Shown: positions 57,119-62,853 of the stretch, piece by piece
How the letters are laid out: each line of letters opens with the position of its first letter
Position numbering within the stretch: position 1 is the first letter of the stretch
NCBI GenBank assembly: GCA_002633005.1
Contig: NMRA01000391.1
Location: 360,159 to 424,158, forward strand
Direction of reading: 5' to 3'
Length of the DNA: 64,000 bases
Source of the DNA: Phoronis australis
Lineage: Eukaryota; Animalia; Phoronida
The notes under the pieces: generated by a model
What the model was told of the DNA's origin: nothing
Database searches by the model: none
Seen by the model: only the letters and a program-made list of their open reading frames with translations
Program-made: the position numbers and the translations under genes

Positions 57119-60100
57119 ATGGAATTTGGAGGGGAATTCTTATGGATCGGGCATACAACTGATGACGACGTCGAGGACATTTCGGAGGAGTCGTTAGAAG
57201 AGAATTTTGGAAATATGAATGTTGGTGGAATGGATGAAGAGGTATTTTTTAAAACAATATTGATCATTGCTTTTGACACTGTGCTGATAATGCTCAATGC
57301 CATTATAAGATGAAAATTAGCTGGAAAAATATTCAATAATCCTTCTTGCTTAACTGAATTTAACGCGAACTCGCTCAAGAGTGTCTCATCAAAGATCCTG
57401 CATGAGACCACAGGCGTCCTCAGCTTCTGATCGCGTCCCCAAATACTGGTCTTGCCTTGGTCTCATGCACAATCGGTTTATTCATCATCCACTAGGTGGA
57501 GCTGTCTATGATTGATGAGCCTGCGCTGTTGCAAGAGTCTAAAGTAAAAGTGGTGAACTCCGTGAAACTGTAATTTACTGTTGAGTGAACGGCTTACGTG
57601 TCTAATTAGACTGGGCTGTACTACATGTTACAGTGTATGCGCACCAAGATGAGTTTCTAGTCCAACTTCACACTTAGGCCTACAAATTACCTGGCAGTGG
57701 CACAGGCGTCCTCAGCTTCTAATCGTCCCCGCCGTCGAGCCGCTACAGCCCGGCTGAGTATAGGCAATCGCGAGTAAAAATTCGAGACTTTGAGTGCCAA
57801 GTTCAAGTAAAAACACTGAAGAATCACTTTGCAAACTAGCTTTAATTAGTACAAGTGGCAGATAGGCATGTAAGCTTAAGCTTCAGACCCATCTTACTGG
57901 GGGAGCCCCACTCTGAAGTTCCCATTCTGAGTGAAACCATTGTCCACGTACAATGAAACTGAATGAAAGGAGCCCATCTTGGTACTCCATAATATGATGG
58001 TATTGAGTTGAAGTCGTGCATTACTGAGCTGTTTTGGAATGGGCATTGGTGGTTCTGGAAAGGTGACTAGAGCCTAGACCGGGCGGGATGGGGTGCACAT
58101 CATGATGACTACATGCAATATGCTTAAGGGGTCCCCAATGCTCATTGATCAAACTTCTGATTCCCAAAGATGTAGAGCTGGTACTGACCCCATATCTGAA
58201 CTCTCATGTGTTATTACAGACTTGTTTACTAGACATTCTGGACACAGCTGGACAAGAAGAGTACTCTGTCTTAAGGGAACAGTATATGAGAGACGGAGAC
58301 TGCTTCCTCATTGTCTATGACATCACACAGAGACGGTCATTTACAGAAGCGCAACATTTACTCACATTTATCAAAAAATTGAAAGGGGTTGACGATGTAC
58401 CAGTGGTAAGTCTGTGCTTATGAAAGAGAGACTATGACTGCACATCCTCACACTGTGATTATACTGTTTGCCGGTATTCATTTATGGTACTCTCTTATCT
58501 TGCTTTTACATGGGCGGTGCACCATGGGGGCTGGGGGGCTATAGCCCCTCACTTTTTTCAGTGCTGCACCGCCCATGGGCTCCGGTCTTATACTGTTATT
58601 ACAATAAAAGCTGCAACAATCAGATGTGCACGTTAGTTTGATTTTCCCCTAAAAGTTAGACTAAGTTCAGCATTACAGTTGTTCTGATTCGTGCACTCTG
58701 CCTTTATTCAGTTAAGTGAGATTTGTGCCATACTGTGGTTGTATTGGACTACCGTATGTGAGTTTTTCTAATATATAAACTATTAAACAGGCCTCGAAGT
58801 ATATCTACTGAACGGTTTATTCAGTTCTATAATTTTACTTTATCAGGTATTTTGCGCCAATAAGTGTGACCTTGACCCTGTCACCTATCAGGTGTCGGAG
58901 GAGGATGAGAAGCGATTTTCTAAACAGTGCAAGAAACCTGTTTTCCGCACTTCTGCTAAAACGAACCATAATGTGACGGAAGCCTTCCATGCCGTGGTCA
59001 GATTAGCACCAAGAACGAGTGTTGGATACAAGGTAAGGGGAAAGAATAAGATATGCTTGTAACAAAACCTGGCTTACCACATGTTGTAGAACACTTTCCA
59101 AAGAGCAGAACAATGACATGGGGTGATGATGTCTTGACGTTTATCTCAAAACGCAGCACCTTGCGTACCCAAAGTCGGATATAACGTGCTGGCATTTTGA
59201 GAACCAGTTTTCTTCACTGAATAACAGGCATCAGTTTCTCAAAATGTGGGCATGTTATATCCGACTACGATGCACAGTCTTTAGTGCAACACTTGCACCT
59301 GTCAAGGTGATCTGAAGTAACTATTCACCTATCAATGAATGATAGTTCTGCGAAATAGGGCATTGTGTTGCTTAATATGCATATATTCAATCCTATATGG
59401 CTATATTTGAAATAATGATTTTTTACAGAAAATTTTTGCTTGAGTGTTTCATACATAGGCGCTTGCACCTTAACTTCACTTGTGGATATATGCATCTATC
59501 TCTTGTGCATGTCTTAAAATGGGTGTTTTGTCCAGTTTTTATCATTTTAATTTAATGCTGCATTACACCTTGTTTAGCTGGCTAAAATGAAAATTGAATT
59601 CAACCTTTTACTCTATCCTGTCTCAAAATTTGCTTTCTATGATCGCGCTTGTATTCTGTTACCAAGAGCAACAATTATACAACCCTGAACAGGTCACAAA
59701 ACGAGTTAAAAAATCATTGATTTAATTAGGTTTGGCCAATACTGAAATTAAAAATGGTGCGCAGGGAATTCCATTAAAAGTAGACCAGTTTTGTGATACA
59801 ACAATGTCTGTGAATACATTGCAGGTCAGCTGCTGGTTTAGTTCTTCCATTAATAACTTCAAAAATGTCTGAAATGACACATAAACGGGGCAAAATGCAG
59901 TTTTTATCCATTTAAATTGAATGCATTTCAGTGCCTGCCTTTGTTTGTTTGATAAGTCAAGTTTCACTAAGACATATTTTACAAAATTTGCTCCTCACTT
60001 TCACTCAAGTATTTCTCAGGTTTAAACACATTAACCTGTTTTGGTATGTAGGCCCGCATTGATCTGTATTGATCCAAATACACGCGTGTTATTGAAGTAA

Positions 60101-62853
60101 TCATAAAAAGGTAATAGTATTGGGCCTAAATGGAAATTCCTGTCCTGCCACCAACTGTAATGTGCAATACTCAAGACAGTTTATGTTGGAATCTGACCAA
60201 AATGCTTTTTTAATTGAAAAAATTAAATATTTTGTTGATAGTACTTGTCAACTTTTATATAATGACATAGAACAAAATATTTTACCTAGTACCAATCTCA
60301 GAGGAGTGATCAAAGTTGGAGAGGAAACTAGTAACTGTTTTACAAAGTTACAACCATCTTATCACAAACTTTCTGCATCTTTTATGTAAGTGAGGTAAAG
60401 CTGTCTGTTTGAGATGTTACAATGTTTGCCTCATTAATTTGACAGGTGGTCATGGTTGGCAGTGGAGGTGTTGGGAAGTCGTCTCTGACTCTCAGATTTG
60501 TGTGTGACATGTTTGTGGACCAGTACGACCCCACCATAGAAGATTCGTTTAGGAAAGCTACAAAAATTGCAGGACTCAAACAACTTTGCTCTAAACAGGG
60601 TAAACTATAAAATGATGTCAGTGTGTCTATCTATGCTAAGCTACATTTCCTTCTCGTTTACAGGCACAGGACCTTGACATATTCAGCTGTTGTAACCCTA
60701 GTACAGACGCTAGTGGTCTCATTCACTCTAGTTAGTGCCTCAGTGTGCCCGCTTGTTTCCAACTAGATTTGACAGCAGTGCCATCTACTGCAACTGTCAT
60801 GTTCACACCGAGTTACAATTGTTATAACCTCTCGCTAGACCACCATCACGAAGGGTTATAACCAAGCAACGATTACAACTTTTAAAACTGGGTGTAAAAT
60901 GTTCAGGTCTTGAGTTAAAGCCATTAAATGGGTTTTTTAAAAGTCATAACTGTTTTGGTGTGAACAGGGTTGTAGTGGGCGTAAAGCATCATGCAAGTGT
61001 TATTAATTGTACAGTTTATGGACCATAAGTGACTTGGAGAGTTAAAAATACTACATATTGCTATTACCACTCTTTAAGAATGCCGGTTATTCTTCAGTTA
61101 ATTTGCTCAAAAATACAGTTACCAAAACTGTCATTTTGGATTTTTCATTGGCTGACCAATGTGTTATGAAAATCCAATATTTGTAAATGTTGTATGACCT
61201 GCTATTCAGTACAAATTTGACTCATAATGATGTACAGGCTTGGTAATGTTCATTTTTGATTAGAAATTTGACATTATAAATTTTCCTGTAGCCTCAGTCC
61301 AAGCATGTTAAATGAAGAATTACCATATGTCTTTATGTTTTTATTTGCAGCTGGTTTTAGATCAAAGCAGAAAGACTCCAAGAAGTCCACAAAGCGAAGA
61401 AGTTTCCTCGACTTATTCAGACGAAGAAATGCTCCAACCACAAGTCAAGGAAAGAGAGGCTCAAACCCGCCTTCAAAGCAAAAAAGTTTCAAATGCTCGA
61501 AAAGTGATTCCAACATTGTTCTGTTACGTCTGGGCACTCTTGCAGACGAGGTCACTGTTATGACTGGCGACCCCATCTTTTGTCGCGGGTGCAAAGCGAT
61601 ACTGTCATCGGTGTCTAAACTGAATAGAGACAAGGATTCAGTACAGTGGGAATGGTCAGTGGTGCTGTTTGCTGTGCAGTAGTTTTTGAAGGAACTGCAT
61701 TCTCCTTTATTTAAACCTGACAAAACCCCAGAGTAAGCAAATTTGCGGGGGAAGAGATCCCTGCCCAGCCTTTGGGTATGACCAACAAAGTCAATATTGT
61801 CATGATTAGCAATTGTGATCAGAACCTCTCCCTGTATTTATGACACCATAGACCTACTAATGTACTGTTATACTTCTGTGGGTTGTGAACCATTGGCGGC
61901 CAAGTGATAGACCTGTGGCCATTGATTCATTGCTAGCCTTTTGTTGTATCTGGCTGTGTCAGCTAGGTTATGATGGTCTTTGGTTATTACAAAAGTACAA
62001 TCCTTCACTTGCTTTTCCCAAAATTAATTGCAAAATTGTCATTTCTGTTTTTCTGATGCTCGTTACTTTACTATAAACATAACTTTAATTTTACCAAATG
62101 CAGTACAACTAAAGACTACAATTTTCTATTAGTCATTTTTGTTGAGAAATTTGGCAATGAAATTTCAATTATTGTGTGCTAAATAGGTCAGCTACTGTAT
62201 CAATAGATCTTGTCTGAATTTGCTAATTCCATCACATCACTAACTGATGTTAAGTTAGTAGATGAGGGATTGATTTTTTTAGTGAAAGCATGTGACTTCA
62301 TACACAAAGGATTGTGGGATAGCAGTCATTCAAAGCAGCCCTGCTAATAGACATTGATAAATGATCTGTTGAAATCACTTTATTTTATTAGCAGTTAGAA
62401 GTTCAGTTTATCAAAGATGTAAATGCATGTTAACAAGTAACTTTTATTCAAAATCAAGTGCCAGCTTACCATGCAAATGATTTTGTGCATGACATTTTCT
62501 GGATTCTTGATTGGATGACTCGTATCTTACAAATCTACTCTCTGGGGTGCACTTGCATCAATTTTCATTATCTATAACAAAGGTCAATAGTGTAGTGGTT
62601 CTGTATTGATAAAATAATGCCATATATTGTGCAATATTGTGTTCTTACAGTGAATTCTGTGGTGATGCCAGCGCCAACCTAGAGTTGGATGATGCAGCTC
62701 AAGTGCCAAGTGAGCACCAAGTGGATTATATGCTGACTCCACCACCAACAGATGGCGCTAGCGATGAGAGGGGGAAATCCTCCGGTGTATTAATCTACTG
62801 TGTTGACGTCAGTGGGTCGATGAGTTCAAATTGCCAAATGCCAGCCCTTCTAG
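57119..62853 (+). CDS. Circularly permuted Ras protein (cpRAS) with Sec23/24-type Zn finger and vWA domain; 5' part only, continues beyond the window
   Basis: GT-AG, phase-consistent exons: 57119-57241 ([11 protein letters not shown]..acidic), 58220-58405 ([17 protein letters not shown]3), 58847-59032 (ANKCD G4; TSAK G5), 60446-60599 (GSGGVGKS G1; [12 protein letters not shown]2), 61351-61654 (polybasic; CRGC..WE), 62651-62853 ([18 protein letters not shown] DxSxS). No stop codon is reached in the window. Confidence 0.9.
58509..58577. mobile_element. 69-bp mini-MITE with perfect 13-bp TIRs in cpRAS intron 2
   Basis: catgggcggtgca (58509-58521) and tgcaccgcccatg (58565-58577), with internal palindrome ggggctatagcccc. 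No TSD is evident. Confidence 0.65.

Follow-up and report, generated by a model that had tools for sequence, protein, structure and literature searches.

A spliced and transcribed gene of the CPRas1 type (cpRAS-VWA), a new animal member of a published family, is located on the plus strand from position 57119 in a 64,000 nucleotide stretch of the Phoronis australis genome (contig NMRA01000391.1, positions 360,159 to 424,158), here called the window. It encodes a circularly permuted Ras GTPase, in which motifs G3, G4 and G5 precede G1 and G2; a zinc finger comes next, and after it a von Willebrand factor A (vWA) domain begins. From comparison with relatives and from predicted structures, the protein is on balance probably a one-chain GTP/GDP switch: a likely active GTPase that is inserted into, and docked on, a Sec23/24-like scaffold of zinc finger, vWA, beta-sandwich and helical domains, whose MIDAS (metal ion-dependent adhesion site) would bind a partner. 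The gene itself is ordinary, and the hypothesis that it raises at the level of the family is testable.

Six exons, separated by five introns of 441-1413 bases that all have GT-AG borders, give 385 codons without a stop. Exon 1 (57119-57241, residues 1-41) contains the start codon, a strand of the MEFGxxF/V type and an acidic spacer, and aligns to the N-terminus of P0044, an Acanthaster orthologue of 873 amino acids named 'circularly permutated Ras protein 1-like' at NCBI. Exon 2 (58220-58405, residues 42-103) encodes Ras beta3 and the G3 motif DTAGQEEY of switch II (DTAGQ at 58241-58255) up to the start of beta5, and exon 3 (58847-59032, residues 104-165) encodes G4 (NKCD, 58859-58870), helix 4, G5 (RTSAK, with SAK at 58952-58960), helix 5, the linker APRTSVG (59006-59026) and the YK of the old beta1. 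Beta1, the G1 P-loop GSGGVGKS (60458-60481), helix 1, G2 or switch I (YDPTIEDSF, with YDPTIEDS at 60524-60547) and beta2 follow in exon 4 (60446-60599, residues 166-216). Exon 5 (61351-61654, residues 217-318), collinear with P0044, carries a basic variable linker, a conserved strand with D-x-N-V, and CRGC (61581-61592) as the first pair of the zinc finger. Exon 6 (62651-62853, residues 318-385), matched by tblastn with P0044 at E 1e-8, carries the second pair of the finger (W-E-C-E-F-C, interrupted by intron 5), the first vWA strand and the MIDAS motif DVSGS (62805-62819).

In Pfam searches, positions 48-103, 109-159 and 2-45 of PF00071 fell on exons 2, 3 and 4, respectively (E 6e-18, 9e-8 and 6e-11). 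Because the segments were matched in permuted order, the rotated order of the motifs is not due to chance, and the order read in the original prediction is correct, as is, going by the orthologue, its reading of a zinc finger and vWA start behind it. Exon 2 aligns to residues 50-111 of KRAS/HRAS; the first residue of the GTPase part corresponds to Ras T50 and the last lies near G48-L49, which places the cut in the beta2-beta3 hairpin, where the original prediction had put the new termini. The equivalents of Ras G12, G13, K16, S17, F28, Y32, T35 and Q61, which it had listed as intact, were all found, and the G2 motif TIE and the signature residues of the RAS family are intact as well. The old helix 5 is joined to the YK of the old beta1 within exon 3, in uninterrupted DNA, while moving exon 4 ahead of exon 2 produces a phase mismatch and two stops. 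Exons 1, 5 and 6 searched singly against Pfam gave no relevant match, including none to a zinc finger or vWA domain; the zinc-finger and vWA labels of exons 5-6 were taken from P0044. C294, C297, C318 and C321 of the Phoronis protein align to columns that are Cys in 58-60 of 61 relatives. Upstream of T42 there are 41 residues, and the linker spans 77 residues (40-292 in relatives). The first vWA strand and DxSxS of exon 6 are collinear with the orthologue, and the remainder of the domain lies beyond the end of the window, within which no later exon was found downstream of exon 6. Position 62853 is thus the end of exon 6 only, and the gene extends past the window.

Three RNA read runs with the same species label were mapped to the locus; 18-19% of each was read, and exon joints were listed only at three or more reads. 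Intron 2 was spanned by nine reads (7, 2 and 0 in the three runs), intron 3 by six (1, 5 and 0) and intron 4 by four (3, 1 and 0). In all joint reads the first mate was on the minus strand, as expected for plus-strand RNA in a usual stranded library. The RNA check of exon order proposed in the original prediction thus came out in its favour, and the joints over introns 2-4 argue strongly against a misassembly or two separate genes. Introns 1 and 5 were not among the joints listed at this threshold in the portion read, and are supported by frame, splice signals and homology. A fourth RNA set, consisting of contigs, was also mapped to the locus and gave no listed joint. Six reads extend beyond 62853 in frame. 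Candidate extra exons in intron 4 were ruled out since the RNA skips this intron entirely, and those in 62854-64000 were ruled out since the RNA continuation past 62853 is absent from the window. At a few percent of sites, the reads and the window disagreed. In the linker, RNA reads had 8-15 letters per read unlike the window, and at 61438 reads of run X2 had a 6-base in-frame insertion, which adds two residues and no stop. Between 58226 and 58252, 54-57 reads of run X3 probably derive from another Ras gene and were set aside.

The architecture of CPRas1-type proteins, cpRAS-zinc finger-VWA, was set out in 2008 with its function left open by Elias and Novotny, in whose report (PMC2430557) the zinc finger is already on record and an N-terminal region of 40-66 residues is followed by cpRAS and then by a poorly conserved linker. 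The Phoronis protein conforms to this architecture and is collinear with P0044 over 384 residues (39% identity, BLASTP E 8e-91), which confirms the assignment to the cpRAS family made in the original prediction. An HMMER search with exon 3 gave 50 matches, 18 of which had the same helix 5-linker-YK junction. A search with P0044, in which only 7993 candidates were scored, gave 80 proteins, a set skewed to echinoderms for that reason; 61 were counted as GTPase-bearing, 14 lacked a whole GTPase and five were dropped, namely the unrelated fusions P0127-P0129 and, for their odd architecture, P0060 and P0066. The best match to the Phoronis protein had 42% identity over 385 residues (E 2.5e-98). When exon 6 and exon 5 served as queries in word-based homologue searches, 23 and 82 candidates yielded nothing, a weak negative since the full orthologue later gave 80 proteins. 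Hosts of the permuted GTPase (61 of 80 proteins) were echinoderms, hemichordates, amphioxus, molluscs, nemerteans, an annelid, a sponge and amoebozoans. Judged by these sequences, the CPRas1-type family is widespread in marine invertebrates, and the patchy distribution ascribed to it in the original prediction undersold its range. In a quick tree, which had no canonical Ras outgroup, the Phoronis protein fell in a mostly animal group with poor resolution, on a long branch (1.19).

Conservation among the 61 GTPase-bearing relatives was nearly complete at K16 (61), T35 (60), Q61 (60), N116 (61) and D119 (61), and each residue of the effector loop YDPTIEDS was kept in 56-61 of them. N271 of the D-x-N-V strand and both Cys of CRGC were kept in 60/61, as was each D/S/S residue of the MIDAS, with T536 and D562 kept in all. 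The MEFG-type N-terminal motif was present in 49/61 GTPase-bearing relatives and in 3/14 of the others. No relative among the 61 ended in a CaaX box. In P0060, from Pecten, the best match to the N-terminal 277 residues of the Phoronis protein lies at 770-1044, after the vWA part of P0060 itself, and from its sequence this protein is probably a gene model fusing tandem CPRas copies. In P0004, P0007, P0011, P0014, P0017, P0023, P0025, P0035 and P0036, which are fragments of other genomes, the matches end right after YK-V, which is the site of intron 3; the fragments presumably end by read-through into introns, suggesting that the position of intron 3 is shared by many CPRas genes.

Structures were predicted on two relatives standing in for the Phoronis protein, P0044 and P0010, the latter a natural fragment that consists of the permuted domain only and was aligned with the three window exons and 59 relatives. 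The P0010 model had a predicted local distance difference test score (pLDDT) of 91 and a predicted template modelling score (pTM) of 0.86; order was good in beta1, helix 1 and beta2. The first 119 residues of the model superposed on Ras 49-168 with a root mean square deviation (rmsd) of 1.1-2.0 A. The permuted halves are thus predicted to form a closed G-domain. This structural check suggested in the original prediction came out well in the scores, and in superposition for the G3-G5 half; the sequence-order aligners used (Foldseek, VIA-align) follow that half only and not the G1/G2 half, and among solved structures none matched the permuted domain over its full length (best template modelling score 0.56).

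The full model of P0044 (pLDDT 86, pTM 0.87) was poorly ordered only in the linker (pLDDT <50) and the tail, and its best structural matches were Sec23 and Sec24 (Foldseek E 2e-23). Residues 1-843 matched human Sec23A 17-617 with Z 24 and an rmsd of 5.0-5.1 over about 476-488 residues (475-498 over the matches to Sec23/Sec24), and the model has the beta-sandwich, zinc finger, trunk and helical domains of Sec23/Sec24 (PMC6775307). The match starts at model residue 1, which corresponds to human Sec23A 17, and residues 1-10 had a pLDDT of 96. The prediction is therefore that the N-terminus of CPRas, termed poorly conserved in 2008 (PMC2430557), provides the first strand of a Sec23-like beta-sandwich. 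Since the match runs from residue 1, the pLDDT there is high and an MEFG-type motif opens three GTPase-less relatives, we infer, from the first and last residues of the match ranges, that the GTPase has been inserted after the scaffold's first strand and is not fused to the N-terminus. The Sec23/24-like fold proposed in the original prediction was hence recovered, and 'fused' is better replaced by 'inserted'. By pTM arithmetic a floating GTPase would give 0.69-0.74 and a docked one 0.86-0.90; the value of 0.87 for P0044 suggests that the GTPase is likely docked on the scaffold.

In such a one-chain switch, cutting Ras at the beta2-beta3 hairpin would leave the GTPase hanging from the scaffold via the strands next to switch I and switch II. 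The conserved E/R/R/Q of the last vWA helix (pattern P-x-E-L-x-R-x-x-R-x-x-x-Q) would likely touch the GTPase and sense or control its nucleotide state, and the MIDAS, which is intact, would serve to bind a partner from outside. Because no relative has a terminal CaaX box, targeting would be via the scaffold and not via a lipid anchor.

Two arginines of that last vWA helix, R636 and R633 in P0044 numbering, were present in 59/61 and 53/61 GTPase-bearing rows. Among the 14 rows without a whole GTPase, the helix arginines were found in P0125, which retains the tail of switch I, and in P0112, which begins at the vWA domain, so both look like shortened CPRas; when these are set aside together with P0120 and P0121, which group with the Rap-like P0110, the arginines are present in none of ten GTPase-less rows. 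The GTPase-bearing exceptions without the arginine are P0110 (Rap1-like, with T61) and P0118 (Rab-like, its switch I being degenerate). Rap1, which has T61, is switched off by a RapGAP without an arginine finger (PMC2265111), so that loss of the arginine in P0110 is what a catalytic role would predict. P0110, with the fragments P0120 and P0121, has a CPRas scaffold and a permuted GTPase with DTAGTEQF, and its best solved matches are all Rap (E 3e-55); by its sequence it is a circularly permuted Rap variant, with a vWA helix lacking both arginines. P0118 is a single metagenome protein in an otherwise GTPase-less clade, with a Rab11/Ypt31-like stretch (Rab about 38-177) followed by a P-loop; it is possibly a second independent permutation with another cut, and could be an artefact.

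These patterns make the helix arginine a candidate in-cis contact or arginine finger to the GTPase. A bolder proposal is that CPRas is a self-inactivating Ras switch, in which the gelsolin-less scaffold would give an arginine finger in cis (R636 or R633) and the permutation would have let Ras be inserted with its switches towards that helix. We regard this as possible but rather doubtful; if true, it would be a new mechanism of GTPase-activating protein (GAP) action on the Sec23/24 fold that may date back to the last eukaryotic ancestor, and would offer a living model for the first pairing of a gelsolin-less coat precursor with a small GTPase. The self-contained GTPase plus regulator envisaged in the original prediction thus gains indirect support, from the predicted docking and the co-conserved arginines.

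Several points weigh against the docked switch and against a catalytic role of the arginines. The closure of the G-domain is read from pLDDT and pTM. The docking argument turns on one score, and the ESM Atlas model of P0044 has a pTM of only 0.51. The arginine losses amount to two clades only (fast module tree, supports 98 and 100), and W427, G547 and E556 show a similar split between GTPase-bearing and GTPase-less proteins, so plain ancestry could explain the arginine pattern; Fisher p-values were left out of account, as related proteins have residues in common. Only three of the ten GTPase-less rows have a proven N-terminus, and the other seven are maybe truncated. All of the protein beyond residue 385, the arginine helix included, falls outside the window and is read from relatives that are at most 39-42% identical to the Phoronis protein. 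In the Phoronis copy, moreover, the R123-E143 pair is missing though it is kept by most relatives.

An alternative that we hold to be unlikely is that the GTPase is tethered only, offering a free switch I to outside Ras-type effectors, guanine nucleotide exchange factors and GAPs, while the vWA module works as an independent adaptor. The canonical effector loop, conserved as described above, and the long, variable and poorly ordered linker would suit such an arrangement, and the existence of GTPase-less relatives indicates that the module works alone. The pTM of P0044 is nevertheless above the value for a floating domain, the N-terminal tether has just about 40 residues, and the scaffold arginines follow the presence and type of the GTPase, all of which speaks against mere tethering.

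It is improbable that the Phoronis copy of CPRas is drifting, with its nucleotide binding weakened, and is retained mainly as a scaffold. The changes that would favour this lie at 58886-58948 on the plus strand. In HRAS, R123 and E143 form a salt bridge linking G4 and G5 (PMC8301913). At the R123 position, R in 53/61 relatives, the Phoronis protein has Y117 (TAT, 58886), and at the E143 position, E in 60/61, it has R137 (CGC, 58946), with a one-residue insertion just upstream. Helix 4 also has E124 (58907) where 51/61 relatives have G, and S where 59/61 have A. Both the Y117 and R137 codons are more than one base away from codons of the usual residues, making a single sequencing error unlikely, and the long branch points in the same direction as the changes. 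Against drift, the 21 switch and P-loop positions checked showed no deviation, and P0018 has H/K at the same pair, so that its loss is tolerated elsewhere. Among the 19 exon codons classed from the RNA variant rows shown, six of seven in the GTPase were synonymous (three of these sites are possibly from another Ras gene); five of seven in the linker were non-synonymous and three of five in exon 6 synonymous.

It is very improbable that CPRas is a true inner-coat unit like that of COPII (coat protein complex II), acting on its own GTPase as Sec23 acts on Sar1 and aiding vesicle budding. Sec23 and Sec24 are indeed the best structural matches, and the arginine helix would map roughly to yeast Sec23 375-390 (the profile match ends at 377), where the F380/F382 region binds Sec31 (PMC9291540) and where the human equivalent of F380 does so too (PMC9291540, PMC4565863). 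The identity to Sec23/Sec24 is, however, only 13-17%, and the matches of P0044 to a bacterial vWA protein (Z 21.8) and to ArnB from archaea (Z 21.5) are nearly as good as that to Sec23, so the fold is not specific to coats. The GTPase is of Ras type and not of Sar1/Arf type. Moreover, the catalytic residue of Sec23 is supplied by its gelsolin domain (PMC11914678), whereas P0044 is all-helical after residue 733 and has no Pfam match to gelsolin; its structural match stops at Sec23A 617 in most top rows, with a few rows extending to yeast Sec23 704-705. The Sec23-Sar1 GAP mechanism is therefore not transferable as it stands, and the analogy to Sec23 GAP action drawn in the original prediction is unsupported in that form. 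Finally, the chance that the locus is an ordinary Ras gene with misassembled exons, or two adjacent genes, is negligible, since its only point is the lack of introns 1 and 5 among the listed joints, whereas exons 2-3-4-5 are connected by RNA, a single exon contains the permutation junction, the ordinary exon order is off-phase with two stops, and the permuted order recurs in dozens of independent genomes.

Other features of the window were noted. In intron 3, at 59173-59266, there is an inverted repeat of 31 nt (87%) whose arms are 32 nt apart; part of it is matched by thousands of RNA reads that then diverge, and it is likely a high-copy element resembling a miniature inverted-repeat transposable element. 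More short high-copy or inverted repeats, intronic or upstream, occur at 58509-58577, 56788-56885, 57394-57474, 57409-57433 and 57701-57725, and intron 1 has a 25-nt direct repeat with copies 292 bases apart. On the minus strand, 45072-46271 is a single, apparently intronless open frame of 399 codons for a rhodopsin-family G protein-coupled receptor (PF00001, E 4e-37). On the plus strand, exons at 33270-35889 have double zinc ribbon matches (PF12773, under the curated cut-off) and look like those of a DZANK1-type gene, and a serine/acid-rich open frame of 369 codons without a Pfam match at 12078-13187 is probably a large exon.

The CPRas family is still given only as 'potentially' ancestral to eukaryotes in a further report (PMC13393502). 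No functional or structural study of CPRas was found in the literature searched, which covers few subscription journals and gave, besides the 2008 report, apparently brief mentions, and neither the insertion reading nor the arginine helix was found in the available parts of the CPRas texts examined, subscription journals being mostly outside the search. The present comparisons turn the 'function unknown' of CPRas into a question about named residues, namely the two helix arginines and GTP hydrolysis. If the arginines were catalytic, CPRas would provide a GAP of a new, intramolecular kind and would hint at the way in which the Sec23/24 fold came to partner GTPases; if not, an ordinary member of an orphan family remains.

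With the known CPRas1-type proteins the Phoronis protein shares the motif order, TIE, the 41-residue N-terminus, the variable linker, the four-Cys finger and the start of the vWA domain, but it is at most 42% identical to them, lies on a long branch and has lost the R123-E143 pair; their full length is about 840-970 residues, and the C-terminal half of the Phoronis protein lies outside the window. P0044 is predicted to agree with Sec23/Sec24 in the succession of beta-sandwich, zinc finger, vWA trunk and helical domain, whereas CPRas keeps the MIDAS residues and has a GTPase inserted behind the first strand, and P0044 is without gelsolin. The same gelsolin-less four-domain core is found in GTPase-less CPRas-like proteins, in Asgard 'Sec23-like' proteins (PMC11914678) and in ArnB (PMC12852372), which has a MIDAS as CPRas does; these differ from CPRas in having no inserted GTPase, and the helix arginines were absent from all ten GTPase-less relatives checked. 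Atlas clusters with Thorarchaeota and Promethearchaeota score 0.97. When prokaryote genomes were scanned with the module alignment, 28 loci came up, every one a distant match of bacterial vWA type and none from Asgard. HRAS/KRAS and CPRas have all nucleotide-binding and switch residues in common and their G3-G5 halves superpose, but in CPRas the order is rotated, the ends lie at the beta2-beta3 hairpin, CaaX is missing from all 61 relatives and the GTPase is part of a protein of about 870 residues. The YRG (YawG/YlqF) proteins are likewise circularly permuted P-loop GTPases; they differ in being of unrelated origin, with the order G4-G5-G1-G2-G3 and a cut between beta3 and helix 2 (PMC2430557), whereas in CPRas G3 comes first.

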